Assembly: GCA_024277355.1 (NCBI GenBank)
Contig: JAJRVL010000011.1
Coordinates: forward strand, 30,001 to 62,000
Direction: 5' to 3'
Length of the DNA: 32,000 nt
Origin: an archaeon
Lineage (GTDB): Archaea; Iainarchaeota; Iainarchaeia; Iainarchaeales; 1-14-0-10-31-34
The position numbers were made by a program, and so were the translations under genes. Positions 15,918 to 30,609 of the stretch are shown here, piece after piece; the first letter of the stretch is position 1, and each line of letters opens with the position of its first letter. Under the pieces are notes generated by a model. That model made no database searches. It saw nothing but the letters and a program-made list of their open reading frames with translations, and was not told the origin of the DNA.

Positions 15918-16826
15918 TTATTCTGCGAATTGCTCGTATTCTTCTGAATTAAACCTGTATAAAAATCGCTTGATTTTTGAATTTTTAAAAGAATATTTTT
16001 CTATTACTTTTTCTTTTTTTCCTGAGAATTCCTCAAAAGGTGTTTTTTGTGAGGGGTCAAACAAATAAAAATTATTTTTGTATTCTGTAATTACAAAAGT
16101 ATGAGTAGATAAATTTTCCAGTTCTGCTACAACAACAAAAGCTTTTTCATCTCCTAAAGCATAAAGCAAAGTACATAAAAAAACCGCAATGTCTTCATCA
16201 TCTGCAATTTTATGTCTTAATATTTCTGAAGGAGCCATCCAATAATTGATTTTTAAATTTGATTCAACAAAAGAAATTTCTTTTACAACAAAGTCAAACG
16301 CTTCTTTTGCAATAGTTAAATAATTTTTTTCAAAAGAATAATCAGAAGAAATTAATTCAGCTAAAATTGCCTGAATGCTTAAATCATCAGGATCAATTAA
16401 TCCTTTGATTTCTCCAATAGTTTTCTCTTCTTTTTCATTTATTATTTCAGTGTATTTTTCAAGCAAAAAAGAATAAAGCTTGAATTTAAGTTCTTTTTCT
16501 TTTTGTTTGTAATCTATTTCTGAAACTGATCCTAAAGCCTGCCTTAATTTAGAATATTTTTCATATAAATCATTGTATTGAGATTGTTTTTTTGCTAATT
16601 CTAATTCAAAAACAGCAGTTGATTTTTTTGGTTTAGGAAACTGAATTTCATTTAACTTTAATTTTAATTTAGCTAATTTAACTTCAAGTTCAGGTTTAGA
16701 TAAATCATCTGCTTTTTTCAAAGAAGATTCTAATTCTTCAATTTTTTTCCATAATTCCTGTTCTTCTATTGCCTTTGATTTAACTGGGAACATTAAATAA
16801 AAGCCCACAGAGAATGATTTAAACAT
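15918..16826 (-). CDS. Coiled-coil protein with C-terminal transglutaminase-like (Cys-His-Asp) core
   Basis: The N-terminal half is heptad-like and Lys/Glu-rich. The C-terminal DIAVFLCTLLYALGDEKAFVVVAELENLSTHTFVITEYKNNFYLFDPS has the C...H...D order and spacing of transglutaminase-like cysteine peptidase cores. The start is uncertain (M1 or M12). Confidence 0.45.
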   Translation of the reverse strand: MFKSFSVGFYLMFPVKSKAIEEQELWKKIEELESSLKKADDLSKPELEVKLAKLKLKLNEIQFPKPKKSTAVFELELAKKQSQYNDLYEKYSKLRQALGSVSEIDYKQKEKELKFKLYSFLLEKYTEIINEKEEKTIGEIKGLIDPDDLSIQAILAELISSDYSFEKNYLTIAKEAFDFVVKEISFVESNLKINYWMAPSEILRHKIADDEDIAVFLCTLLYALGDEKAFVVVAELENLSTHTFVITEYKNNFYLFDPSQKTPFEEFSGKKEKVIEKYSFKNSKIKRFLYRFNSEEYEQFAE

Positions 16827-16947: not shown

Positions 16948-17346
16948 TTGAAGGGACAAATTTCAATTGAATATCTTACTTTAACTGCAATTGTTCTCCT
17001 TATTGTAGGAGTAATGTTTGTTTTTGCAATAACAACTGTAAATGAAAACGCAAGACTTAATTCAGCTTATTATGCTACAAGAGAATTAGCTAATGCAGCA
17101 GATGAAGTAAGTACTAGAAATGGAAGCACTATTGTGGTTGAAATTGAACTGCCTTCAGATGTAACTTCTTTTTCAACTTTTGGGACAGACATTACAATTG
17201 AAATGACGTCTCTTTTAAATTCATTTCAGGTTTTTGATTCAAGCAAGGCATCATTACAGCCGACAAATTTTTCCACTTCAGAAGGAACTCATTTTATTGC
17301 AGTGAATTCAACTGATTCAAATATCACTTTTACTGAACTTAATTAA
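16948..17346 (+). CDS. Type IV pilin-like protein with class III signal peptide (DUF361/Epd type)
   Basis: N-terminus MKG|QISIEYLTLTAIVLLIVGVMFVFAI has a short basic leader, a Gly at -1, the QxSxEYLxL motif and a hydrophobic helix. TTG start with GGTGA at 16939-16943. Confidence 0.8.
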   Translation: MKGQISIEYLTLTAIVLLIVGVMFVFAITTVNENARLNSAYYATRELANAADEVSTRNGSTIVVEIELPSDVTSFSTFGTDITIEMTSLLNSFQVFDSSKASLQPTNFSTSEGTHFIAVNSTDSNITFTELN

Positions 17347-17357
17347 AGGGATTATAA

Positions 17358-17714
17358 ATGAAAGGGCAGGTTTCAATGGAAGTAATTATTGGAGCAATAA
17401 TTTTATTGCTTGTATTGGTTTTTATCTGGATTTACAGTATTCAAACAAATGAAGGAATTGATGCATTAAAAAATTCAGTTGAATCAAAATCTTACTGCAG
17501 AGAAATTGCAGATACAATTAGTTCAGTTTATGCTTCAGGAACAAAAACTACAATAGAATTTTATTCAGAAAAAGACTTTAATTTAAGCAATGGAATGGTT
17601 GATGTTAATGGTTTTCTCTGCAGTTATTATGCTGAAGCAGAAGAAAAATTTATAGCAAAAGGAAACATAAGAATAAAAGATTTGAACGGGGTTGTCGTGA
17701 TTGAAAATATTTAA
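17358..17714 (+). CDS. Type IV pilin-like protein with class III signal peptide
   Basis: N-terminus MKG|QVSMEVIIGAIILLLVLVFIWIY. It starts 11 nt after the previous pilin gene. Confidence 0.75.
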   Translation: MKGQVSMEVIIGAIILLLVLVFIWIYSIQTNEGIDALKNSVESKSYCREIADTISSVYASGTKTTIEFYSEKDFNLSNGMVDVNGFLCSYYAEAEEKFIAKGNIRIKDLNGVVVIENI

Positions 17715-18270
17715 GAGAAAATGCTCGGCTGAGCAAAGCGAATGCCGTGCACCGTCACACCCGAGCGGAATCGGGTCGCGAGCGAAATCGCGAGGGCAGT
17801 CAAGTTTAATTGATTTAGTTATTGGGTTTTTTATTTTTGCTTTGATTCTTGCTTCAATTATGGGAACTATAAATAAAAATACAAAAGATTTCACTAGAAA
17901 TTCAGAAATAGATGAAATAAATCATGATTCTTTTTTTTCAGTAAAAGAATTAACTGAAACAAAAGGTTTTCCTGAAAACTGGGAAATATTAGATGAAAAT
18001 TCAGTTGAAAAAATAGGTTTAATTGAAAGGAGAAATACAATAAGTGAAGACAAAGTTGTTGCTTTTTCTAATATGACTTACAGCAAAACAAAAGAACTAC
18101 TTAAAATAGAAGGATATGATTATTATTTTGTATTAAACGGAGTAGATAATATTACTGCAGGAATAAATCCTGTTGGGCAAACAAAATATTCAATTATTAC
18201 TAAAAGAATTGTAAATTATAAAGGAAGTGAAGCTGAAATTGAATTCAGATTATATGAACTCTGGGAATAA
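17701..18270 (+). CDS. Pilin-like protein with an unusually long (33-aa) leader
   Basis: A pilin-type core SRG|QSSLIDLVIGFFIFALILASIMG is preceded by MKIFKRKCSAEQSECRAPSHPSGIGSRAK. The only in-frame start is TTG 17701. The leader is encoded by the GC-rich island. Confidence 0.6.
   Translation: MKIFKRKCSAEQSECRAPSHPSGIGSRAKSRGQSSLIDLVIGFFIFALILASIMGTINKNTKDFTRNSEIDEINHDSFFSVKELTETKGFPENWEILDENSVEKIGLIERRNTISEDKVVAFSNMTYSKTKELLKIEGYDYYFVLNGVDNITAGINPVGQTKYSIITKRIVNYKGSEAEIEFRLYELWE
17722..17800. other. GC-rich island with two tandem 6-bp-stem hairpins
   Basis: Hand count gives 51/79 G+C, against 14/60 in the next 60 nt. Hairpins are ACCCGA-GCGGAA-TCGGGT (17759-17776) and TCGCGA-GCGAAA-TCGCGA (17776-17793). 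An alternative long-range pairing is GCTCGG (17723-17728) with CCGAGC (17761-17766). Confidence 0.6.
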
Positions 18271-20974
18271 AGGATTTACTTTTACTTTAGATTCAATTCT
18301 TGCCTTGCTTATAGTTTCAGGAATAGTTATTTCTTCAGGATTATTTTTTACTGAAGAAAAAACTGAAATTAATTTAAGCCAGGAATTAAATGATTCATTT
18401 AATGCAATGGAAGAAACAGGTTATTTGATTAGTCAAGTGGATACAAATGTTTCTGGTTCAGCACAAAATATTTACAATAAATTAATTGGTTTTTTTCCTG
18501 ACAGAATTGACTTTAATGTAACTGTAAAAGAATTAGACTTAAATAATACAAACTGCAGAGCAACACCAACTTTTAACGGCTGTTTTACTGATTCAAATGA
18601 ATTTACTTTTGGTTCAAGTGTTCCAACAGACAAAACAATTTTTTATGGAAAAAAATTAATAATAAAAAAACAACCTCCAGGAGAATGCGATACAAATATG
18701 CTTGGATTAGCAGAATATCCTTTTACATTTTATGAAAAAAACGATATCTTGTTTTTTGCGGGATCTGGAGATTTAAATTTTGTTTTTGATGTAAATGTAA
18801 CTCCTTCAACTGAAATTGAATGCGACCAGAACATTACAATAGATTTAAGTGCAGCATTTCCTCCGGGTTATAGAAGACCTGTGGACATAATGCTTGTAAT
18901 AGACAAAAGCGGTTCAATGAGCTGGGGGGGAAGATATGATACAAGCAGTGCAAGAGGAATAGATTTAGATGGAAATTATGCATATATTGCAGATTATAGC
19001 AATGGAATAAGAAGTTTTGATATTAGTGTTCCTTTAGTTCCTCAGTATTTGGATAGATATGATACTTACAGAGCATATGATGTTTTTGTTGATGGAAGTG
19101 AAGCTTATTTGGCAGATTATTCATCTGGAATACGGTCAATTGATGTAAGCGATCCAAATAATATGAGTCAGGATGACAGAGTTGATTTATCTGTAAATTA
19201 TTCTTTTGGAATAACAGTTAATGGAAATTATGCTTTTGCAGGCAATGGTTCAAGAGGAGTTGATTCCTATGACATAAGCAACCCAAACAACATGAATCAA
19301 TTAGACAGATATAATACGCCTGGAACTGCAAGAGGAATTGATGCAAACGGAGACTATGTTTATGTTGCAGATGGAGGAAGAGGATTAAGAGTATTAAATG
19401 CCTCAGATCCAAATGATTTATCTAATGAAGATTCTTTGGATTTAGGAGGATATGCTTATGATGTAAGAAATGTTGGAGATTATGCTTTTGTTGCAAATGG
19501 TTCAAGAGGATTAGATATTTTTGATGTAAGTGATCCTTCAGACATCAGTTCAAGAGGGCGGTATAATACTGCTGGAACTTCTTATGGAATTGATGTTGTT
19601 GGAAATACAGCTTATATTGCTGACGGAGGAGGAGGATTATATTCAATTGATATTAGTGATGTTGACAATCCTTCTTTAATTAAGAGATATGATACTCCTT
19701 ATACTTATTATGATGTAAGAGTGAAAAATGGTTATGCTTTTATTGCAGCAGGAAACATGGGGTTAATTACTTTGGATTTAACTTCAGGAACAAAAATGGA
19801 TGCAGTTCATGCTTCAGCTAATGCTTTTGTTGACTTTAATGAATGGACTGATAATGATCAAATGGGAATTGCAAGTTTTAATACAAGTTCAACTTTGGAT
19901 TCACAATTACTAAAATTAGATGACACAAACAAAACACAATTGAAAAATGATATTAATGCAATAACTCCTGGCGGAGGAACAAACATTGAAGAAGGAATAA
20001 GAGAAGCAACAGATGAATTAATTTCAAGCAGAGCAGATCCTTATGCAATAAAATTTATGGTGTTGCTTTCAGACGGAGTATCAACTTCAGGAGATTCACT
20101 TGATGCAGCACAAGATGCAAATGCAGAAGGAATAACAATTTATACAATTGGATTTGGCGGAGATGTAAGTGAATCAGAACTGCAGAATATTGCTAATGCA
20201 ACTGATGGAAATTATTATTTTGCTTCAGATGCAAATACATTAATAGACATCTATAATATTATTGCAGATAAAATTCAGGCTCAAGCAACTGATTCAAATG
20301 TAACAATTGTTGTTCCAAGTAATGTAACAATAATTAATGACGGAAACGCATCAATAATTGACGGCAATTTAGTTTTTGATTCAGGAAATATTACTCCTGA
20401 TACTCCCTGGCAGGGAAGTTATATCATTAATATTCCTTGTGATTCAAATTTAAGCTGCGACACTGCTTCAATTACTTTTCCCGGCCAAGGAAGCTTTTTG
20501 TCTTATGTTGATGTAAACGGAGTAACACAAACAGTTGACTGGAATAGTTTTACTGTTCCAATTCCATTTAAGAAAAGAGACATTACAGTTGAAATTACTA
20601 GTGGAGAATTGTTATCTGAAACAGATATTTTTATTGATGTAAATGTATCAAATATTGGGGATTTAAATACCGGAACAACAGACTTAAATTTTTATTTAGG
20701 AAATGATTCAATCTGCAGTATTGGAGCAGGAAGAACTCTTTTGTCAAATCATTATTTAGTTCCGGAATTATGCGGAAGCAATGATGAAAACTGTTCTTTT
20801 TCTACAACGCTTTATTTGGATGAATATATGTTAAGTCAGGGAATAATTTGTGCTGAAGTTAATCCTGACAGAAATTTAAAAGAATGTCCAAATAATAATC
20901 TTGATTCAATTCACTGTTATTTAGCTCCAAAAACACAGTTTTATGTAATTGAATACAGAGGATGGATTAAATGA
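18254..20974 (+). CDS. Pilin-signal-bearing giant adhesin candidate: vWA domain interrupted by a seven-repeat LVIVD beta-propeller, plus CARDB-like C-terminal region
   Basis: The ATG at 18254 gives MNSGNKG|FTFTLDSILALLIVSGIVI, a prepilin-like N-terminus. vWA strand beta1 and the MIDAS DxSxS are in VDIMLVIDKSGSMS (D at 18902). Seven LVIVD-type repeats follow. The vWA then resumes (KMDAVHASANAFVDF, MGIASFNTSS, PGGGTNIEEG, MVLLSDGVSTSG, TIYTIGFG). The C-terminal ITVEITSG...IDVNVSNIGDLNTGTTDLNFYLG is CARDB-like. Confidence 0.85.
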   Translation: MNSGNKGFTFTLDSILALLIVSGIVISSGLFFTEEKTEINLSQELNDSFNAMEETGYLISQVDTNVSGSAQNIYNKLIGFFPDRIDFNVTVKELDLNNTNCRATPTFNGCFTDSNEFTFGSSVPTDKTIFYGKKLIIKKQPPGECDTNMLGLAEYPFTFYEKNDILFFAGSGDLNFVFDVNVTPSTEIECDQNITIDLSAAFPPGYRRPVDIMLVIDKSGSMSWGGRYDTSSARGIDLDGNYAYIADYSNGIRSFDISVPLVPQYLDRYDTYRAYDVFVDGSEAYLADYSSGIRSIDVSDPNNMSQDDRVDLSVNYSFGITVNGNYAFAGNGSRGVDSYDISNPNNMNQLDRYNTPGTARGIDANGDYVYVADGGRGLRVLNASDPNDLSNEDSLDLGGYAYDVRNVGDYAFVANGSRGLDIFDVSDPSDISSRGRYNTAGTSYGIDVVGNTAYIADGGGGLYSIDISDVDNPSLIKRYDTPYTYYDVRVKNGYAFIAAGNMGLITLDLTSGTKMDAVHASANAFVDFNEWTDNDQMGIASFNTSSTLDSQLLKLDDTNKTQLKNDINAITPGGGTNIEEGIREATDELISSRADPYAIKFMVLLSDGVSTSGDSLDAAQDANAEGITIYTIGFGGDVSESELQNIANATDGNYYFASDANTLIDIYNIIADKIQAQATDSNVTIVVPSNVTIINDGNASIIDGNLVFDSGNITPDTPWQGSYIINIPCDSNLSCDTASITFPGQGSFLSYVDVNGVTQTVDWNSFTVPIPFKKRDITVEITSGELLSETDIFIDVNVSNIGDLNTGTTDLNFYLGNDSICSIGAGRTLLSNHYLVPELCGSNDENCSFSTTLYLDEYMLSQGIICAEVNPDRNLKECPNNNLDSIHCYLAPKTQFYVIEYRGWIK
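18950..19789 (+). repeat. Seven tandem ~40-43-aa LVIVD-type repeats (coding, protein-level periodicity ~120-126 nt)
   Basis: Repeat cores are GNYAYIADYSNGIRSFDIS, GSEAYLADYSSGIRSIDVSDP, GNYAFAGNGSRGVDSYDISNP, GDYVYVADGGRGLRVLNASDP, GDYAFVANGSRGLDIFDVSDP, GNTAYIADGGGGLYSIDISD and NGYAFIAAGNMGLITLDL. Confidence 0.8.
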
Positions 20975-21930
20975 AAAATAAAGGAATCTTTTTTCTTTTA
21001 ATGGGATTAATTCTTTCTCTTTTAGTTTTGGGTTTTGGATTTAAAATAAACCAGCAGTATCTTGAAGCAGAAAAAAAATCATTTAATTCAAATGCATTAC
21101 AACAAGTTAAAAACAAATACTCAAATATTAATTCAGTTAAAGACTTTTACAGAGAAGGAACAATAAAAACTTATTTTGAAAGAATTGTTCCGATTACTTA
21201 TTCGGTTGATGAAAATACAATAAGCATTACTCAACAGCTTCCGATAAAAAAAGCTTTAGTGCGAAATTTTTTTGATTTTGTTAATGCATTTGAAATTTTC
21301 ACTGAAACAACTGATTCATTAGTTTATGACGGAATAGATGTTGAAATTGAAACTGTTCAAAACAGTTTATGGGGAGGAACAGATGAAAACATTGTTTTAA
21401 TGATTAAACCTCAATGCAAAAAATATTCAATTACAGATTATAATTCAATGCATTTTTATGGTTCAAATGAATGCGACAATGCTTTTGATATCAGTTTAAT
21501 TGAAAGAATTGACATAAATATTACTGTAAGTTCAGATGATGATTTTAACAGATTATCCTGTAATTTCGGAGGCGATTTAGTCTGTTATCAGGAAACTTAT
21601 GTGCCTGCAAACCCAAATCCATTTATTGAAATAAACTTGATTGATTCAGCCTGCCCTAATTGCGATTTAAATTCAGATACAAGAACAATAAAAAAACATT
21701 TTACTCCTACTTCTGCAAACACAGTAATTTTTTCATGTTCAGGAACATGCACTTCTCTTCCAATAGAAATATTATTTAATGAAAATAATACTGAAATAAG
21801 GCATTCAGGAACAACAATAAGTGTTAAAACTGAATTTTTGTTTACAGACAAAATAACTGAATTTGAATTAAATGATTTAAACATAAGTTTAACTGACTCA
21901 AAATTTAGTATAACAAAAACAAATAAGTGA
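20971..21930 (+). CDS. Pilus-operon protein with N-terminal pilin-like hydrophobic segment; otherwise unknown
   Basis: N-terminus MKNKG|IFFLLMGLILSLLVLGFGF. Its ATG overlaps the upstream stop (ATGA). The mature part contains several Cys. Confidence 0.5.
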   Translation: MKNKGIFFLLMGLILSLLVLGFGFKINQQYLEAEKKSFNSNALQQVKNKYSNINSVKDFYREGTIKTYFERIVPITYSVDENTISITQQLPIKKALVRNFFDFVNAFEIFTETTDSLVYDGIDVEIETVQNSLWGGTDENIVLMIKPQCKKYSITDYNSMHFYGSNECDNAFDISLIERIDINITVSSDDDFNRLSCNFGGDLVCYQETYVPANPNPFIEINLIDSACPNCDLNSDTRTIKKHFTPTSANTVIFSCSGTCTSLPIEILFNENNTEIRHSGTTISVKTEFLFTDKITEFELNDLNISLTDSKFSITKTNK

Positions 21931-21934
21931 AAAA

Positions 21935-22996
21935 ATGAATGCCATGAATTTAATTTCAATAATTGCTTCAATAGCAATAATAATTGCAGTGTTTTTTGTC
22001 GCTAATGAAAACATTGTTAATTTTGAAAACACAAAAACACAAATAGAAATTCAATCAAAAGAAAACTTTGAACAAGGAGAAAATGCAGAATTTATAATAA
22101 ACATAGAAAGCGGAAAAGAAATAACAAAAATAATTTATATTTCTCCCACAAAAAGAGAAGAAAAAAATTGCGGAAAAAAAACATGCGTTTTGACTTTTAA
22201 GGAAATATTTACAGAAAAAGGAGTTTTTTTTATTGAAATAAAAGTTGAAATAGGAAAAGAAACATTCAGTGAAAAAAAGAAAGTTTATGTAAATGCCGCA
22301 GGAAAAAAATGTTCTGATGGAACTGCTTTTGGGTTATGCTCTTTAAACAAACCACAATACTGCAATAACGGCAAACTTGAATATAACTGTGAAAAATGCG
22401 GATGTGAACAAGGAGAATGCATTAATAATAAATGCAGTTATTCAGGAACAACTGAAATTACAGGAATTTCACTTGAAAGAACATTTTTTGAGCCAAATCA
22501 GGAAGTGAAAATTAATTTAAATTCAAAAGAAAATAGTTTAGTTAATGTTGTAATTGAATGGAAAAAAGACAATAAAACAGAAAAAACAGAAACAAAAAAT
22601 ACTTCATTAAATTATGTTCTGTCAGTTTCTCCGCCAAAAGAAGGAGTATATGAATTAAACTTAGTTTTTGAAGAAAAAGTTTTTTCAGTTGAAAACATAA
22701 CAATAAGAAATGACTCAACACCCCCAAAAACACCTGAAGGAATTATTGCAAGCAAAAGAAACGGAAAAATACTTATTGCATGGAATCCAAATACTGAAGC
22801 TGATTTAATGGAATACAGAATTTACAGGAGTAAAGAAGATAATCAGGCGTTTACAACTTATACTATGGCAGAAACTGCATCAAAAAATGAAACCGGGAAA
22901 GAACTTGAAATATGGTCAACAAATTATTTTTACATTACTTCAGTTGACTATTACGGCAATACATCAAAGCCAAGTGCAATAATTGAAGCAACGTGA
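21935..22996 (+). CDS. Membrane-anchored protein with an 8-Cys knot motif and a C-terminal fibronectin type III domain
   Basis: N-terminal TM helix (LISIIASIAIIIAVFFV). The Cys-rich block is CSDGTAFGLCSLNKPQYCNNGKLEYNCEKCGCEQGECINNKC. The FN3-like C-terminus is PPKTPEGIIASKRNGKILIAWNPNTEADLMEYRIYRS...YFYITSVDYYGNTSKPS. Confidence 0.6.
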   Translation: MNAMNLISIIASIAIIIAVFFVANENIVNFENTKTQIEIQSKENFEQGENAEFIINIESGKEITKIIYISPTKREEKNCGKKTCVLTFKEIFTEKGVFFIEIKVEIGKETFSEKKKVYVNAAGKKCSDGTAFGLCSLNKPQYCNNGKLEYNCEKCGCEQGECINNKCSYSGTTEITGISLERTFFEPNQEVKINLNSKENSLVNVVIEWKKDNKTEKTETKNTSLNYVLSVSPPKEGVYELNLVFEEKVFSVENITIRNDSTPPKTPEGIIASKRNGKILIAWNPNTEADLMEYRIYRSKEDNQAFTTYTMAETASKNETGKELEIWSTNYFYITSVDYYGNTSKPSAIIEAT

Positions 22997-23042
22997 AAAT
23001 TAAAAAGAATAAATAACTAAATATAACAACAGGTAATTAAAA

Positions 23043-24809
23043 ATGGAAAAAGAACAGCAGAAAAAAAATTTATTAATAAGCAAAATGCTTGAAGCAAAAA
23101 GAATAGAATTAGGAATCATAGAAAACCAGTTATTATACAAACTAAAAATTTTATTTAAAAAACCTGAAAAAACTAAAAGCCAAAAAATAAATGAACTAAA
23201 AAAAAGTCTTGAAAAAAAAGAAACAGACGAACTTGAATTAATGCTTGTTGAAAAAGAACACGCATTAATAAAACTTGAAACAACAGTAAAAGAAAAAAAA
23301 GACAAAGAAAAATTAAAAGAAGTAATAAAACTAGTTGAAAAAATAAAAAACAGTGAAGGCGAAAGAGGCAAAATAGGAATGGAAATAGGCTTAAAAAGAA
23401 AAGAAATAAAAGAACTCAAAAAAGAAGTAGAACAGAAATTAAAAGATATAACCAGAGAAAAAACTATTCTGACTCCAAAAAAGAAAAAAATTAAGAAAAC
23501 AGAAATAAAAAAAGGAAAAAAAACTAAAAAGAAAAAAGAAAAGAATTCTTCAACTCTTCTAAAAAAAAGAAAAAAAGAAAAAGTTTCAGGTTCATCCAGA
23601 AAATTAAAGAAAAAAACTAAAATAGAAATGAAAAAACCAAAAATTTCTTTTTCTTCACCTGAAGAAGAATTAAAAGCAAAAAGAGAACAAGAAGTAAAAG
23701 AAAAAAGGAAAAAAGCCATGGCTGCATTTCATCAGAATTTTACTTCAGGAAACGAAACTTTAATTAACATTAAAGGAAACGCTCAAATAGTTTCAGGAAC
23801 AAGAGGCACAGGAACAACAGGAATAAACAATAAAGAAACAGCAAAACAAACTGAATATGCTGAAAGCAGAAAAAATGAAGAACTTGAATTTGACATACAG
23901 AAAACAAAAGAAAAAATAAAGAACTTAAAATCCGCTTTTTTCCACAGACAAATAAATGAAGAAACATACAAGAAAAAACAGTTTGAATACCAAGAAGAAT
24001 TAAGCTCACTTGAAATGGAAAAAAAAAGGCCAAAAAAAAGAAGTTTTGCTCCTGTTCAAAAAACAGAATCTGTTTCAGCTTATGCAGGATTAAAAACAGT
24101 TCAGGATGAAAGCGTTCAGTTTGCAACAAAACACACTCAAAAAAGCAGAGCAAAAGTAAAAAATGCATTAAAGAGATTTAAAAAAGAATTTAATGCAGGT
24201 TCAAAAACAAAAGCCAATTTAGATTCCGAAGAAAAAACACGTGTTAAAACTGAACCAGAAGAAATAAAACCAACCGGAATAATAAAAAGACTTGCTCCTG
24301 GAACAAGCCAGGAAAAAGAAATGGAAATGGAAAAAAAGCTTTATAGGGTAATGCAAAAAAATCAGATTGACCAAAGCAGGATTAGAAGAGAATTTGAATT
24401 TGTTTCAGCTAAAGATTTAATGAAAAGGTTTGACAAAATACTTGATGTAATTGACAACAAGTATTCTCAAACAGAAAAACCTGCAGAAAAAGAAGAAAAG
24501 CCATTTGAAGAAGGATTGTATGTAACAAACAAACAAACTTCCCAAAAAACAGGAGAAATAAGAGACATAAAAGAAAAAATAATAGTAACTGATTTTGACA
24601 GATTACTTGAATTAGTAAATAAAAAAGGAAAAGTAAACGAAAAAGAAGCAGAAAAAACACTTAAATTAAGTCCAGAAAGAATAAAAGAATGTTATACTGT
24701 ATTAGAAAAGAATGACTTAATTAGAATAGAATACCCTATGTTTGGAGGAACACAAATTTTTTCAAAAAATTTTGTTGAACCAAAAAAAATTAAAAAGAAA
24801 AAAAAGTGA
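23043..24809 (+). CDS. Lys/Glu-rich coiled-coil or disordered protein with C-terminal winged-helix-like module
   Basis: 588-aa ORF in the pilus operon ending 4 nt before the ATPase gene. It is extremely K/E-rich. The C-terminal DFDRLLELVNKKGKVNEKEAEKTLKLSPERIKECYTVLEKNDLIRIEYP looks like a wHTH. Confidence 0.6.
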   Translation: MEKEQQKKNLLISKMLEAKRIELGIIENQLLYKLKILFKKPEKTKSQKINELKKSLEKKETDELELMLVEKEHALIKLETTVKEKKDKEKLKEVIKLVEKIKNSEGERGKIGMEIGLKRKEIKELKKEVEQKLKDITREKTILTPKKKKIKKTEIKKGKKTKKKKEKNSSTLLKKRKKEKVSGSSRKLKKKTKIEMKKPKISFSSPEEELKAKREQEVKEKRKKAMAAFHQNFTSGNETLINIKGNAQIVSGTRGTGTTGINNKETAKQTEYAESRKNEELEFDIQKTKEKIKNLKSAFFHRQINEETYKKKQFEYQEELSSLEMEKKRPKKRSFAPVQKTESVSAYAGLKTVQDESVQFATKHTQKSRAKVKNALKRFKKEFNAGSKTKANLDSEEKTRVKTEPEEIKPTGIIKRLAPGTSQEKEMEMEKKLYRVMQKNQIDQSRIRREFEFVSAKDLMKRFDKILDVIDNKYSQTEKPAEKEEKPFEEGLYVTNKQTSQKTGEIRDIKEKIIVTDFDRLLELVNKKGKVNEKEAEKTLKLSPERIKECYTVLEKNDLIRIEYPMFGGTQIFSKNFVEPKKIKKKKK

Positions 24810-24813
24810 TTAA

Positions 24814-26334
24814 ATGAAAGAAAAAGTTTTAGAAACATATAAAGTAAAATCAATTGAAACAGAAATAGAAGTAAATATTATTGAAAGAGAAAAAGAAGTA
24901 GTAAGAATTTATTTTTTAAATTTTCCTGAATTTGGAGCAGGAACAAAAGCCGTATTAAAAAATTTAAAAAGAAGCATTATAACTGATTCAACAATTCAGG
25001 CAGAAAAAATGATGGATCCTAATTTTGTTGATTCACTTAAAAGAAAATTTCAGGGAAGAGCAGAAAAAATACTTGAAAAAGAACTTCCAAATATAGCTGA
25101 AGGCTCAAAAAGTTTGTTAATAGGATTATTATTAGAAGAAATGCTTGGATTAGGCAAATTAGAGTTTTTATTAAATGACGGAAACATTGAAGAAATAGTT
25201 GTAAATACTGCAACTGAACCAGTATGGATTTATCATAAAGGATATGGCTGGCTGAAAACAAATGTTTTTATTACTCCTGAAAAAGAAATACAAAATTATG
25301 CAAGTATTATTGCAAGAAGAATTGGAAAACAAATTACAATATTAAATCCTTTGCTTGATGCACATTTAATTACAGGAGACAGAGCTAATGCAACTTTATT
25401 TCCTATTTCAAGCAAAGGAAACACTATTACAATAAGGCGTTTTAGAAGAGAACCATACACTATAACTGATTTTGTTGAAAACCGAACACTTAACACCGAT
25501 ATAATGGCTTTAGTATGGCTTGCAATGGAATATGAATTAAACATTATTTTTTCAGGAGGAACAGGTTCAGGAAAAACCACTTCATTAAATGTTTGTCTGC
25601 CTTTTATTCAGCCAAACCAAAGAATTTTAAGTATAGAGGACACAAGAGAACTTTCACTTCCAGAATATCTCCACTGGGTTCCATTAACTACAAGAGAACC
25701 AAACACTGAAGGAAAAGGCGAAGTAACAATGCTTAATTTATTAGTTAACTCTTTAAGAATGCGTCCAGACAGGCTGATTGTAGGAGAAATCAGAAGGCAA
25801 AGAGAAGCAGAAGTATTATTTGAAGCAATGCATACAGGACATTCAGCTTACACTACTTTTCACGCTAACACAGCAGAAGAAACAATCAGAAGATTAGTTA
25901 ATCCTCCAATTGAAATTCCAAAAACAATGCTTGATTCAGTTCACTTAAATATAGTAATGTTTAGAAACAGAAGATTAAATGTAAGAAGAGTGCTTCAGGT
26001 AGCTGAATATGTAACTGAAAGAAGAGGAGACACAGAAGAAGTAAAAGCAAATATTTTATATCGATGGAAAGGAGCAACAGATACAATAGAAAAACATTCT
26101 GAAAGCATTAGATTATTTGATGAATTAGGATTACATACAGGTTTAAGCAAACAGGAAATGAACAATGAATTAAAAACAAAAAAGAAAATTCTTGACTGGA
26201 TTACATCAAACAAAATTCGTTCAATACAGCATGTTGGAAGGATAATGGCAGATTATTATATGAATAAAGACAACATAATTGAATTAGCAGAAAAAAACAA
26301 AAAACCAGATTATATTTTTGAGGAGAAAAAATGA
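24814..26334 (+). CDS. Type IV filament assembly ATPase (FlaI/EpdL/TadA-like, T2SSE/VirB11 superfamily)
   Basis: Walker A FSGGTGSGKTT, Asp box ILSIEDTRELSLP, Walker B RPDRLIVGEIR and His box GHSAYTTFHAN, plus a ~230-aa FlaI-like N-terminal domain. Confidence 0.92.
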   Translation: MKEKVLETYKVKSIETEIEVNIIEREKEVVRIYFLNFPEFGAGTKAVLKNLKRSIITDSTIQAEKMMDPNFVDSLKRKFQGRAEKILEKELPNIAEGSKSLLIGLLLEEMLGLGKLEFLLNDGNIEEIVVNTATEPVWIYHKGYGWLKTNVFITPEKEIQNYASIIARRIGKQITILNPLLDAHLITGDRANATLFPISSKGNTITIRRFRREPYTITDFVENRTLNTDIMALVWLAMEYELNIIFSGGTGSGKTTSLNVCLPFIQPNQRILSIEDTRELSLPEYLHWVPLTTREPNTEGKGEVTMLNLLVNSLRMRPDRLIVGEIRRQREAEVLFEAMHTGHSAYTTFHANTAEETIRRLVNPPIEIPKTMLDSVHLNIVMFRNRRLNVRRVLQVAEYVTERRGDTEEVKANILYRWKGATDTIEKHSESIRLFDELGLHTGLSKQEMNNELKTKKKILDWITSNKIRSIQHVGRIMADYYMNKDNIIELAEKNKKPDYIFEEKK

Positions 26335-27224
26335 TTGATAAAAGTGAAATAATTCCTTTCAATATTCTTCCAGTTCCATTAATAAAAAAACTTTCAATGA
26401 AATTTTATGGTACAGGAACAAAATTATCAAAATTTTTTCCTGATTTAAAATTAGAGTTAGCTCAGGCAGAATTAGCTTACAGCGAAAAAGAATACAGTGC
26501 AATAATCATTACAATGGCAGTAATTTACGGTGTTATTGGATTAATAATTGGATTATTGTTTGGTTTCAGGCTTTTTCCTGATGGATTTATTTTAGTTGGG
26601 TTAGGCGGAGGAGCATTAGTTGGTTTTTTTGTAATGTTTCAGGTTGCTTTTTATCCAAAAATAAAAGGAAAAAAGAAAATAAGAGAAATTGAAAGAAATT
26701 TAATTTTTGCTTTAAGGACAATGAGTGTAGAAATAAAATCAGGAGTTTCATTATTTGATTCACTTAATATTATAGCACAAGGAGATTATGGTGCTTTATC
26801 AATTGAATTTGGCAAAGCAGTAAAAGAAATTGAAACAGGAACAATGGAAGAAAATGCATTAGAAAAAATTGCAAGATATAATCCTTCATTGTTTTTCAGA
26901 AGAAGTATATGGCAGATAATTAATGGAATGAAAGCAGGAGCAGATGTAAGTTCAGTAATGGAAGAATTAGTTGCAACAATGATAAGAGAAGAAAAATTAC
27001 AGATAACAAGATACGGTAATTCAATGAAATTACTTTCATTAATGTACATGATGTTAGGTGTAATAATTCCTTCTTTAGGAATAACTTTTTTGATTATATT
27101 ATCTTCTTTTCCTCAAATGCAGTTAGGAGAATTATTATTCTGGATGTTATTAGGAGTTATTATTGTAGGTGAATTTATGTATTTAGGAATATTAAAATCA
27201 AAAACACCAAATTTAATGGGATAA
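26331..27224 (+). CDS. Pilus platform membrane protein, single T2SSF domain (TadB/EpdJ-like)
   Basis: A cytoplasmic helical T2SSF-type domain (LIFALRTMSVEIKSGVSLFDSLNIIAQGDYGALSIEFGKAVKEIETGTMEENALEKIA) is flanked by TM helices. Its ATG overlaps the ATPase stop. Confidence 0.8.
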   Translation: MIDKSEIIPFNILPVPLIKKLSMKFYGTGTKLSKFFPDLKLELAQAELAYSEKEYSAIIITMAVIYGVIGLIIGLLFGFRLFPDGFILVGLGGGALVGFFVMFQVAFYPKIKGKKKIREIERNLIFALRTMSVEIKSGVSLFDSLNIIAQGDYGALSIEFGKAVKEIETGTMEENALEKIARYNPSLFFRRSIWQIINGMKAGADVSSVMEELVATMIREEKLQITRYGNSMKLLSLMYMMLGVIIPSLGITFLIILSSFPQMQLGELLFWMLLGVIIVGEFMYLGILKSKTPNLMG

Positions 27225-27225
27225 A

Positions 27226-28209
27226 ATGTATGAAAAAATTAGTTCAATGATTCCAAGAAATGTCTTAAAGGCATTTAAAAACGAATTAACATATGCAGGA
27301 ATAGACTTAGATGAAAAAAACTTTGTTGGTTTTGTGTTTGTTTTTGGTTTTGCAACAGCAATTGCAGCAGGATTTGCTTTAAATTTCTTTTTTTCACTTC
27401 ATTTTTTTATTGGATTTATTACAGGATTTATTTTAACTGTAGGGGGAATTTATTACCTGCTTAATCAGGCAGGAGACAGCAAAGCAAGATTTGTAGAAAA
27501 AATTCTGCCTGACGCACTTCAATTAATTGCTTCAAACATGAAGTCAGGATTAACAACAGAAAAAGCATTATTGGTTTCATCAAGACCTGAATTTGGTGCA
27601 TTAGCAATAGAATTAAAATAAGCAAGCAAAAAAATGATGACTGGAGAAAGAACTGAAACAGCCTTAAAAGAAATGACTTTAAAAATAAGATCAAAAATTT
27701 TCAGTAAAACAGTCTGGCTTATAACAGAAGGAATTAATTCAGGCGGAGAAATGGCTAACTTGCTTTTACAGTTGTCTAATGATTTAAGAGAGCAGAATGC
27801 ATTACAGGAAGAAGTAAAAGGAAATGTTTCAATGTATGTAATTTTGATTTTTTTTGCTTCAGTTATTGGCGCACCATTAATGTTTGGAATAAGTTCTTTT
27901 ATTGTACAGATAATGGCAAAACAAGCAGGTGGTTTATCAGGATTATCAGAAGAAAGTTTAGCTTTAGCTTCATCTCAAGGAGCATTTTCATCTGGAACAG
28001 GAATAAGTATTACAGCTGACTTTATTGTAATGTTTTCAATGATAACTTTGTTTGTTATTTCAGTTTTTGGTTCACTTACAATAGGAATAATAAGTACTAG
28101 AAGTGAAAAAGGCGTAATAAAGAATATTCCTTTAATGTTAATTTCATCTTATGTGATTTACTTTATTGTTTTAACTGTATTACAATCAACTTTTAGTTCA
28201 TTGGTTTAA
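27226..28209 (+). pseudogene. Second single-T2SSF-domain platform gene (TadC/EpdK-like) interrupted by one in-frame TAA at 27619-27621
   Basis: ORFs 27226-27621 and 27634-28209 are in the same frame, separated only by TAA plus four sense codons. Read through, PEFGALAIELK*ASKKMMTGERTETALKEM aligns to GDYGALSIEFGKAVKEIETGTMEENALEKI of the paralog, with the stop opposite a Lys codon. Confidence 0.65.
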
Positions 28210-29081: not shown

Positions 29082-29780
29082 ATGCCAAGATTAACTGACA
29101 GAACAAAAACAGGAGTTCCAGGATTAGATGAATTACTGGACGGCGGGATTCCAAGAGGAAATTTAGTTGTATTAGCAGGAGACCCTGGTTCAGGAAAAAC
29201 CTGTTTTTGCCTTGAATATCTATACAAAGGAGCATTGGATTACAACGAACCAGGAATATATATTTCATTAGAAGAAAGCTATGCTGAAATAATACGAAAC
29301 GGAAGAGAATTTGGATATGAATTAGAAGAATTAATAAAGAAAAAAATGCTGATAATTGAAACAGTAGAATTATATGATTTTGAAAAACTGAAAAATTTAA
29401 TTGAAGATTCAATTCAGATAATTAATGCAAAACGATTAGTAATTGATCCTGGAGTAATTTTCAGATTATATTTTGATAGAGAATTAGATGCAAGAAAAAG
29501 AATAATGAGTTTAGGAAAAATGCTTAAATTAATTGACTGCACTACTATAATAACAAATGAAATTAATTTAGACAAAACAAGAAGTTTATTTGGATTAGAA
29601 GAATATGTGGCTGACGGAGTGTTGTTGCTGTATCATACAAAAATAGAAAACAGGTTTGTAAGAAGTTTAGGTGTATTAAAAATGAGAGGAACAAAAATAT
29701 CAGAAAAACTTCATCCAGTTACAATCGGCCCAACAGGAATAAAAGTTTTATCAAAACAAGAATTATTTGAGGATATATAA
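29082..29780 (+). CDS. KaiC-like single-domain RecA-superfamily ATPase (COG0467 type)
   Basis: TGVPGLDELLDGGIPRGNLVVLAGDPGSGKTCFCLEYL (Walker A), RLVIDPG (Walker B strand) and LGVLKMRGTKISEKLHPVTIGPTGIKV (typical KaiC-family C-terminus). Confidence 0.85.
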   Translation: MPRLTDRTKTGVPGLDELLDGGIPRGNLVVLAGDPGSGKTCFCLEYLYKGALDYNEPGIYISLEESYAEIIRNGREFGYELEELIKKKMLIIETVELYDFEKLKNLIEDSIQIINAKRLVIDPGVIFRLYFDRELDARKRIMSLGKMLKLIDCTTIITNEINLDKTRSLFGLEEYVADGVLLLYHTKIENRFVRSLGVLKMRGTKISEKLHPVTIGPTGIKVLSKQELFEDI

Positions 29781-29781
29781 A

Positions 29782-30609
29782 ATGAAGAAAAAAAAAGCAA
29801 AACAAAAGGTTAAACTGAAAAAAGCAGTTAAAAAACCAAAAAACAAAAAAAAGCCAAGTTCAATTAAAGAATTAGAAAACTTACTTACAAAACCATTAAA
29901 GCAGAAAAGAACTTTTGTGACAAAAGAAGAAAAAAGTATTGTAAAACAAAAAAATAAAATAAACAGCAAAATTGAAATGAAAACAAATCTTGAACAAGAA
30001 ATCCATCCTGATGCTGAATTATCAGAATTAATTGACCCAAAAAGAGGCATTGACTTAAAGATATTAAGATATTTAGAAGAACTTCCAAAAGAACAGTTTA
30101 CTGCATTGCTTTTAGTTGAACCAACAAATTACTCTAAAATAAACTATGAATTATTAAGGCTTTTAATAAACCATACAAAAGGAAAAGGAATATATGTAAC
30201 TTTAAATCGTGCTTATGAATTTGTAGAAGAAACACTAAAAAAAGAAAAAATTGATACAGAACAAATAGTTTTCATTGATGCAATAAGCAAAGGAACAGGA
30301 AAAAACATTGTATCCAGAGAAAACGTTGAATACATTGAATCCCCAAGAGATTTAACTGCATTAAGTGTAATATTAGATGAAACATACCAGAAAATGACAG
30401 AAAAACCAAAATTTATGGTGTTTGATTCAATCAGCACTTTATTGATTTACAATGATGTTTCTTCAGTTGAAAGATTTACTCATTTAATTATAGGAAAATT
30501 AAGGGAATGGCGGATGAAAGGAGTATTATTAATGGTTAAATCAGAAGAACACAGAGGAGTAGTTAATTCATTAAGCCAGTTCTGCGACAGAATTCTTGAA
30601 ATAATATAA
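29782..30609 (+). CDS. KaiC/RecA-like paralog lacking a P-loop, with polybasic N-terminal tail
   Basis: The ATG at 29782 lies 1 nt after the upstream stop. After MKKKKAKQKVKLKKAVKKPKNKKKP... the region LLVEPTNYSKINYELL occupies the P-loop position. KFMVFDSISTLL is Walker-B-like, and GVLLMVKSEE...LSQFCDRILEI resembles the KaiC-family C-terminal strands. Confidence 0.55.
   Translation: MKKKKAKQKVKLKKAVKKPKNKKKPSSIKELENLLTKPLKQKRTFVTKEEKSIVKQKNKINSKIEMKTNLEQEIHPDAELSELIDPKRGIDLKILRYLEELPKEQFTALLLVEPTNYSKINYELLRLLINHTKGKGIYVTLNRAYEFVEETLKKEKIDTEQIVFIDAISKGTGKNIVSRENVEYIESPRDLTALSVILDETYQKMTEKPKFMVFDSISTLLIYNDVSSVERFTHLIIGKLREWRMKGVLLMVKSEEHRGVVNSLSQFCDRILEII

Follow-up and report, generated by a model that had tools for sequence, protein, structure and literature searches.

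A pilin-like protein of Iainarchaeota with an LVIVD beta-propeller nested in the metal-site loop of its von Willebrand factor A domain, a position that holds different modules in related species

We analysed a 32,000-nucleotide stretch of DNA (the window) comprising positions 30,001 to 62,000 of contig JAJRVL010000011.1 from an archaeon of the Iainarchaeota (assembly GCA_024277355.1). The window encodes a 906-residue protein that carries one vWA (von Willebrand factor A) domain. In the beta1-alpha1 loop, directly after the DxSxS motif of the metal-ion-dependent adhesion site (MIDAS), the vWA domain is split by a seven-bladed LVIVD beta-propeller. This architecture had been proposed in an initial annotation made from the sequence alone, and Pfam profiles, a solved vWA structure, an in-silico deletion and an AlphaFold2 model all agree with it. 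Beyond that annotation, we find that the propeller is just one of several alternative modules at the vWA loop, and that the inserts occupying this site differ between orthologues. With a probability of roughly 0.6, we interpret the protein as a modular minor pilin that forms the adhesive tip subunit of an Iainarchaeota (DPANN) type IV (Epd/Tad-like) pilus.

The Pfam VWA model (PF00092) matches the native protein at E 3.8e-22, with a score of 79.8 bits where the cut-off is 23.8. The match spans residues 525-667 and corresponds to profile positions 28-172 of 174 only. Strand beta1 and the DxSxS motif fall outside it because coverage of the profile begins at position 28, which leaves positions 1-27 uncovered. 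A weak VWA_CoxE match at residues 206-224 covers exactly the missing piece. The vWA structure of CLCA1 (6pyo) aligns in two collinear segments, query residues 212-230 with chain residues 9-27 and query residues 535-670 with chain residues 44-177. Deleting residues 227-512 in silico yields one contiguous VWA match over profile positions 1-172 of 174 and raises the score from 79.8 to 95.0 bits. We therefore conclude that a single vWA domain is interrupted by repeats, rather than two unrelated pieces lying on either side of them. The discontinuous VWA match flanking LVIVD repeats that the initial annotation had anticipated is thus what the Pfam search, the 6pyo segments and the deletion return.

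The interrupting region matches Pfam LVIVD (PF08309) in seven stretches, with 111.8 bits against a cut-off of 20.2 (E 9e-33). Seven repeat units of about 41 residues each can be listed between residues 229 and 512 (nucleotides 18950-19789). A chance repeat was considered as an explanation of this region and rejected on the extreme E-values. An AlphaFold2 model was computed from an alignment of 16 family sequences and read out as secondary structure and predicted local distance difference test (pLDDT). The mean pLDDT is 80.8, and the vWA and propeller blocks exceed 90. In the propeller model, 28 strands between residues 226 and 508 form seven four-stranded blades (pLDDT >90), and the first strand (residues 226-228) closes blade 7. 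Foldseek matches the propeller to 7- and 8-bladed propellers at E values of about 1e-13.

The model also places the two flanks of the propeller in vWA order. Residues 210-217 are predicted to form strand beta1 (pLDDT ~95), followed by the DxSxS turn. After the propeller, residues 514-678 run through the canonical succession alpha1-beta2-beta3-alpha2-alpha3-beta4-alpha4-beta5-alpha5-beta6-alpha6. Structure prediction is thus consistent with the two halves belonging to one fold, judging from the order of strands and helices and from pLDDT. That beta1 takes its normal place in the vWA sheet receives indirect support from the model of P0125, a family member whose insert is smaller; across this insert, Foldseek aligned the 194-residue vWA domain of LapA (9no5) over 310 columns with a TM-score (template modelling score) of 0.79. 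The chain leaves the vWA domain five residues past Ser221 and re-enters it five residues before helix alpha1. Because the linkers are no longer than five residues on each side, the propeller must abut the MIDAS rim. Judging from linker length, secondary-structure order and pLDDT, it may lie over the MIDAS face.

The MIDAS itself is complete (D217, S219, S221, T576, D607). These five residues are invariant across 16 homologues of 33-76% identity, as are G220, G574 and G608; the closest relative is 76% identical. Of 52 insert-bearing representatives, about 47 likewise have a full MIDAS (DSSTD), among them all simple-propeller members. The intact site claimed earlier is thus present and conserved, and it is a putative binding site for a divalent cation. 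The motifs on which the initial annotation was built are all present where it had placed them in the 906-residue protein: MNSGNKG/FTFTLDSILALLIV (residues 1-21, with the slash marking the putative cleavage site), LVIDKSGSMS (214-223), KMDAVHASANAFVDF (514-528, the start of the resumed vWA fold), GGGTNIEEG (573-581) and LLSDGVS (604-610).

The split is a family trait. A propeller-deleted query was searched against 1.84 billion cluster representatives, and dozens of 50%-identity cluster representatives match it in two pieces divided at the same point. The junction motif SGSMSW-G is conserved among family representatives. What lies between the two pieces varies. We measured the insert in family representatives as the distance from the conserved beta1/DxSxS anchor to helix alpha1. 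Inserts of 113-159 residues consist of one all-beta module, modelled with 11 strands in P0125, and inserts of 230-242 residues consist of two such modules. The LVIVD propeller of the window protein belongs to a class of 285-300 residues, and inserts of 431-450 residues combine a propeller with an additional module, about 150 residues long, nested in it. Larger combinations, some of them including LamG modules, reach 1565 residues. The all-beta module, a beta-sandwich of about 120 residues, has no Pfam name, and the nested module of about 150 residues has no Pfam match at E values up to 0.01.

The same variation is seen among 18 syntenic loci from distinct genomes, where the insert measures 124-138 residues in three, 238 in one, 285-300 in seven and 433-445 in seven. 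In all 18, it starts directly after DxSGSM. Differing inserts are exemplified by the relatives P0125, P0135, P0129 and P0193 and by loci L012 and L014-L016 as compared with L003-L011. A neighbour-joining tree built from the insert-free scaffold intermingles the insert classes; it is a rough tree and only suggestive, because it lacks support values and has long branches. As the module found here differs from one related species to another, the insert has the look of a replaceable binding head of an archaeal pilus.

Four representatives (P0130, P0158, P0163 and P0176) have an uninterrupted vWA domain, with 9-17 residues between beta1 and alpha1. The MIDAS is degenerate in all four, reading DxSRP or DRSTG, and the third Ser and the Thr are lost. 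They cluster together on the scaffold tree and nest within insert-bearing groups, which suggests that the uninterrupted form arose by loss rather than being the ancestral state.

The module of about 150 residues sits inside a propeller that is itself inside the vWA domain, giving three nesting levels (columns ~415-600 of alignment A1). It is seen in P0013, P0014, P0016, P0018, P0129, P0132, P0143 and others, with the consensus ...AAQSF...I.GV.LYLRR.GNP..L.V.LRS...G..LA...YY.VLTT.S....NYY.WG. P0016 has a second copy within the vWA domain, after the MIDAS-Thr helix; DUF4082 (PF13313) is named for this protein by precomputed annotation only.

The N-terminus has the format of a prepilin. In the window protein, MNSGNKG/FTFTLDSILALLIVSGIVISSGLFF comprises a short basic leader ending in KG and then a hydrophobic helix. 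The corresponding family motif, [KR][GA]/F[VAT]F[ST]L[DE]A.LA followed by about 20 hydrophobic residues, occurs in 55 of the 94 family sequences scanned. Among these carriers, position -2 is K or R in 48 of 55 and position -1 is G or A in every one. The N-terminal module that follows has four invariant cysteines (C101, C110, C145 and C190) and is modelled at pLDDT ~70-80 as a helix (residues 12-55), short helices and a five-stranded sheet within residues 85-201. On these grounds, we infer that the protein is processed as a pilin. The conserved motif and the long helix plus sheet speak for this part of the initial annotation; the curated pilin models, discussed below, do not.

The genomic setting points the same way. 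The initial annotation placed the gene in an archaeal pilus operon, and the neighbouring genes, the synteny and the taxonomy of the relatives show this to be a type IV pilus operon of a DPANN archaeon (Table 1). Immediately upstream, three small genes encode class III-like (KGQ/RGQ) N-termini (MKGQISIEYL..., MKGQVSMEVI... and ...SRGQSSLIDLV...), the first of which matches the Pfam model Class_IIIsignal (PF04021) just below its cut-off (E 6.6e-5). A filament assembly ATPase and two platform genes follow 3.8-7 kb downstream of the vWA gene. The ATPase matches the NCBIfam models for FlaI (E 2.8e-82) and the TadA family (E 2.1e-58), each below the equivalog cut-off. Further downstream are two KaiC-like genes, which are regularly linked to archaeal type IV pilus loci (PMC4858521).

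This gene order is kept in about 17 loci of different Iainarchaeota genomes. It begins with a transglutaminase-like gene on the minus strand, two pilin-like genes, a small protein and the vWA protein, and continues with two uncharacterised genes, a Lys/Glu-rich protein, the ATPase, two platform genes and KaiC. The nested architecture thus recurs beside pilus ATPase and platform genes in syntenic loci. Full-length relatives, drawn from GTDB species representatives, come from Candidatus Iainarchaeota ('Diapherotrites') or other archaeal metagenome-assembled genomes, with a short contig labelled Thaumarchaeota as the lone exception. The Iainarchaeota belong to the DPANN kingdom Nanobdellati.

Table 1. 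Parts of the vWA gene and neighbouring pilus-operon genes in the window.
Feature	Position (nt)	Strand	Residues	Evidence or remark
Whole gene	18254..20974	+	906 aa plus stop	ORF (open reading frame) list
Prepilin-like (class III-type) N-terminus	18254..18343	+		Leader MNSGNKG, putative cleavage after G7, FTFTLD, hydrophobic helix
N-terminal pilin-like module	18275..18868	+	8-205	AlphaFold2 secondary structure, pLDDT ~70-80
vWA part 1, strand beta1 and DxSxS	18869..18931	+	206-226	VWA_CoxE, 6pyo, deletion test, AlphaFold2
MIDAS codons, part 1	18902-18904, 18908-18910, 18914-18916	+	D217, S219, S221	
Nested seven-bladed LVIVD beta-propeller	18932..19789	+	227-512	Pfam, repeat listing, AlphaFold2, Foldseek
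vWA part 2, alpha1 to alpha6	19790..20293	+	513-680	Pfam VWA, PDB vWA matches, AlphaFold2
MIDAS codons, part 2	19979-19981, 20072-20074	+	T576, D607	
Two C-terminal beta-sandwich domains	20294..20971	+	681-906	AlphaFold2 strands 681-905, conserved columns
Three small genes, candidate pilins/minor pilins	16948..18270 (16948-17346, 17358-17714, 17701-18270)	+		
Three conserved uncharacterised genes	20971..24809	+		Translations; syntenic in relatives
Type IV filament assembly ATPase, FlaI/TadA-type	24814..26334	+		Pfam T2SSE, E 4.4e-37
Two TadC/ArlJ/UpsF-like platform genes	26331..28209	+		Pfam T2SSF, NCBIfam ArlJ/UpsF
KaiC-family ATPase and KaiC-like/DUF7504 gene	29082..30609 (29082-29780, 29767-30609)	+		Pfam, synteny

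Structural neighbours suggest what such a protein could do. The top Foldseek neighbours of a family member's model include the pilus tip adhesins SpaC, Mfa5, PilB and RrgA, which come from three unrelated pilus systems, and SpaC is also among the neighbours of the window protein itself. A pilus-displayed, metal-dependent adhesin is therefore a plausible functional interpretation. A prepilin peptidase encoded elsewhere would cleave the protein after Gly7, and the hydrophobic N-terminal helix and small pilin-like module would anchor it in the pilus. The tip is its likely position because the protein is bulky, and this position would probably be shared with the pilin-like products of the neighbouring genes. 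There, the vWA MIDAS would hold a divalent cation whose coordination an acidic ligand group would complete. The propeller, fixed at the rim of the metal site because the chain exits and re-enters within about five residues of DxSxS and alpha1, may present an extensive surface for recognition and thereby set or extend the ligand specificity. Orthologues that keep the scaffold and swap the inserted module could thereby diversify the binding targets of the pilus between species.

One may go further and speculate, tentatively and at less than even odds, that the DxSxS loop is a docking site for repeated exchange of whole domains which, together with the MIDAS metal, forms a composite, species-specific 'inverse integrin' head choosing the surface or partner cell for attachment. 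A dependence on contact with other cells is assumed for DPANN archaea, and to our knowledge their attachment molecules are largely unknown. If correct, the proposal would provide the first candidate determinant of cell-attachment specificity in the phylum Iainarchaeota and an archaeal counterpart to the exchangeable tips of bacterial Tad pili. The family offers a concrete, testable candidate, one conserved gene in a conserved pilus operon with a whole domain at its metal-site loop that differs between species. Should specificity reside in the inserts, binding modules could be displayed beside a metal site with this scaffold as a natural template. The more specific suggestion of the initial annotation, host-cell attachment by an episymbiotic archaeon, is not supported by any evidence here.

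Several observations weigh against an adhesive tip pilin. No curated pilin or class III signal model, PF04021 among them, matches the window protein in Pfam or NCBIfam, and the N-domains of 10 family members likewise match no Pfam family and no pilin or class III model. An N-domain profile compared with solved structures retrieves no pilin (best E 0.22, a spurious match to Utp6). The acidic residue stands at +6, as against the +5 typical of bacterial pilins, and the genes of the 32-kb window include no prepilin peptidase gene. Because curated models, solved pilins and the gene content of the window all fail to supply a match, pilin status is well motivated, not proven. Instead of extending the metal site, the propeller might occlude it, and we know of no demonstrated function for LVIVD repeats. 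The association of an intact MIDAS with an insert may go back to a single evolutionary event, given that the four uninterrupted members form one cluster. Lastly, the second platform gene (27226-28209) is broken by an in-frame TAA at 27619-27621 (IELK-stop-ASKK). In five relatives the gene is uninterrupted and the codon specifies E, R or N (IEFKEASKK in the closest relative). The TAA could be a nonsense mutation that makes a pseudogene, a sequencing error or the mark of a genuinely split gene. Because of this stop, the pilus machine may be impaired in this organism, or the base call may be wrong.

The synteny also bears on a different role, in which the protein acts mainly as a pilus-priming or mechanosensing subunit and the propeller is a structural cap. 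As with CpaL, or PilY1 and its minor pilins, it would seed the assembly of the filament, sense tension by means of its vWA domain, or do both. At every locus examined, the vWA gene belongs to the invariable core of the operon and has pilin-like genes on its flanks, as is the pattern for priming components. CpaL and PilY1 set precedents for vWA-linked surface sensing and priming (PMC11870444), and PilC/PilY1 is required for pilus biogenesis. Adhesion would be compatible with such a role. We nevertheless regard it as an unlikely main function, as a purely structural or priming part leaves unexplained why the insert is repeatedly replaced on a retained scaffold and why members that bear an insert keep a conserved MIDAS.

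It is less probable still that the protein is no pilus subunit and instead sits at the cell surface on an uncleaved N-terminal transmembrane anchor, for example as a membrane-anchored adhesin or an S-layer-associated receptor. The missing matches to curated pilin and class III signal models, the lack of a sequence relative among solved pilins and the lack of a peptidase gene nearby would fit this scenario. However, the conserved N-terminal motif, with [KR][GA], F-x-F-[ST]-L-[DE] and some 20 hydrophobic residues, exceeds a generic anchor in specificity and follows the prepilin format. Moreover, synteny inside the type IV pilus operon is strict and the neighbouring genes carry KGQ-type class III N-termini. 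Although misassembly is possible in principle in a metagenome-type, low-GC genome, the nesting is almost certainly not an artefact of chimeric assembly, a frameshift-fused gene pair or chance similarity, because the same architecture recurs, with extreme E-values and a conserved junction, both in assemblies that many studies produced independently and in dozens of representatives of 50%-identity clusters.

The adhesive tip pilin we favour has close bacterial analogues, since pilin-vWA tip adhesins are already known in PilB and CpaL/TadG. TadG/CpaL likewise fuse a pilin-like N-terminus to a vWA domain with a MIDAS and belong to a predicted tip complex (PMC11870444). Their genes also lie beside small minor pilins (TadE/F, CpaJ/K), a TadA-type ATPase and TadB/C platform genes, and the ATPase and platform genes of the archaeal operon are of the same FlaI/TadA and TadC kind as in Tad systems. 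In contrast to TadG/CpaL, the vWA domain of the archaeal protein is interrupted by a nested domain. By analogy, the archaeal protein may work like TadG/CpaL; membership in that family is not shown, and TadE/TadG-type models gave no match to the window protein (Pfam E up to 1, NCBIfam up to 0.1). The Myxococcus Kil/Tad pilus has exchangeable Tip complexes (PMC12075869). Tad tips vary through alternative or paralogous gene sets (PMC12075869), whereas the archaeal family swaps a module inside one orthologous gene.

PilB of Streptococcus sanguinis (7B7P) is similarly built from an N-terminal pilin module and a vWA domain with a complete MIDAS, and is an adhesin presumed to be displayed at the pilus tip (PMC8179133). 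Its MIDAS is functional, with cation binding assayed by ThermoFluor, and PilB has been shown to be an adhesin (PMC8179133). Two small arms flank the MIDAS in PilB (PMC8179133), whereas here a whole 286-residue propeller or another domain is inserted. PilB is bacterial and its class III signal matches IPR012902. The archaeal protein also has two further C-terminal beta-sandwich domains. No sequence relationship between the two was detected beyond the generic vWA fold. RrgA, SpaC and Mfa5 also present a vWA/MIDAS with inserted arms at the pilus tip, alongside beta-sandwich domains, but they rely on sortase or type V assembly, have no pilin-type N-terminus and carry small inserts. A propeller nested in the MIDAS loop extends this theme of arms flanking the MIDAS to full domains. 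Compared with known pilin-vWA adhesins, the unusual features are the whole propeller in the MIDAS loop and the family-wide exchange of modules there.

PilY1/PilC, the tip adhesin of bacterial type IVa pili with functions in adhesion and surface sensing, likewise pairs a vWA-like domain with a beta-propeller. Its domains stand in series, with the vWA N-terminal and the propeller C-terminal, whereas they are nested in the archaeal protein. In addition, PilY1 is not itself a pilin and stays at the tip by means of a C-terminal plug, while the archaeal protein has its own pilin-like N-terminus. We rejected membership in PilY1/PilC, as there is no Neisseria_PilC/PilY1 Pfam match and the propeller is of the LVIVD type and nested. 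Integrin alpha subunits also join a seven-bladed propeller and a MIDAS-bearing vWA domain by domain insertion in one ligand-binding head. There, the I domain lies inside an FG-GAP propeller, while in the archaeal protein an LVIVD propeller lies inside the vWA domain. The reversed nesting order pointed out in the initial annotation is therefore correct and rests on established structural knowledge. A relationship to integrins beyond analogy at the level of the fold was rejected, and no homology is implied.

The initial annotation knew of no described archaeal equivalent, and we found none in the searchable literature, which yielded nothing on this family under LVIVD, DPANN or Diapherotrites pili, adhesins, vWA or archaeal modular pilins. 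In the census of archaeal type IV pilus loci by Makarova et al. (2016), vWA proteins appear only as cytoplasmic ArnB-type regulators and as bacterial TadG (PMC4858521). The survey of modular pilins by Raynaud et al. is confined to the bacterial signature IPR012902.

In the C-terminal beta-sandwich region, the second domain is weakly CARDB-like (Pfam E 0.0066, below cut-off). The region contains conserved Cys residues and ends in a conserved last strand with W904. This final beta-strand, FYVIEYRGWIK (residues 896-906, nucleotides 20939-20971), carries a Trp that is nearly invariant family-wide. By analogy only, it recalls the C-terminal 'plug' strand of PilC/PilY1 that docks on a minor pilin.

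The gene product is identical to database protein P0001, for which NCBI uses the ATG at 18254. The start codon is ambiguous, as there is also an in-frame GTG at 18227, which would add MKLKLNSDY and give a 16-residue leader like the longer leaders of homologues P0002 and P0005. Whichever start is used, the gene overlaps the end of the upstream gene at 17701-18270. The annotated TTG start of that gene gives an unusually long leader of about 33 residues before its RGQ motif.

Downstream, the genes at 20971-21930 and 21935-22996 encode N-terminal hydrophobic anchors. These two and the gene at 23043-24809 match no family in Pfam or NCBIfam. The latter (plus strand) encodes a 588-residue, extremely Lys/Glu-rich protein directly upstream of the ATPase gene, of which only the C-terminal ~60 residues are conserved in relatives. 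Antisense ORFs over this gene (23000-23719 and 23770-24168, both on the minus strand) look like by-products of its biased composition.

Divergent from the pilus operon, the minus-strand gene at 15918-16826 encodes a transglutaminase-like or CEP76-peptidase-like protein (Pfam E ~1e-5 to 4e-6) and holds the same position in nearly all related loci. It could conceivably be linked to the pilus, for example through processing or cross-linking. The type IV pilus ATPase of a Diapherotrites relative (locus L001, 15876-18668) contains an intein with a LAGLIDADG endonuclease and measures 930 residues, compared with 506 in the window. In L003, L005 and L010, gaps that follow the first segment of the ATPase suggest an intein there as well.

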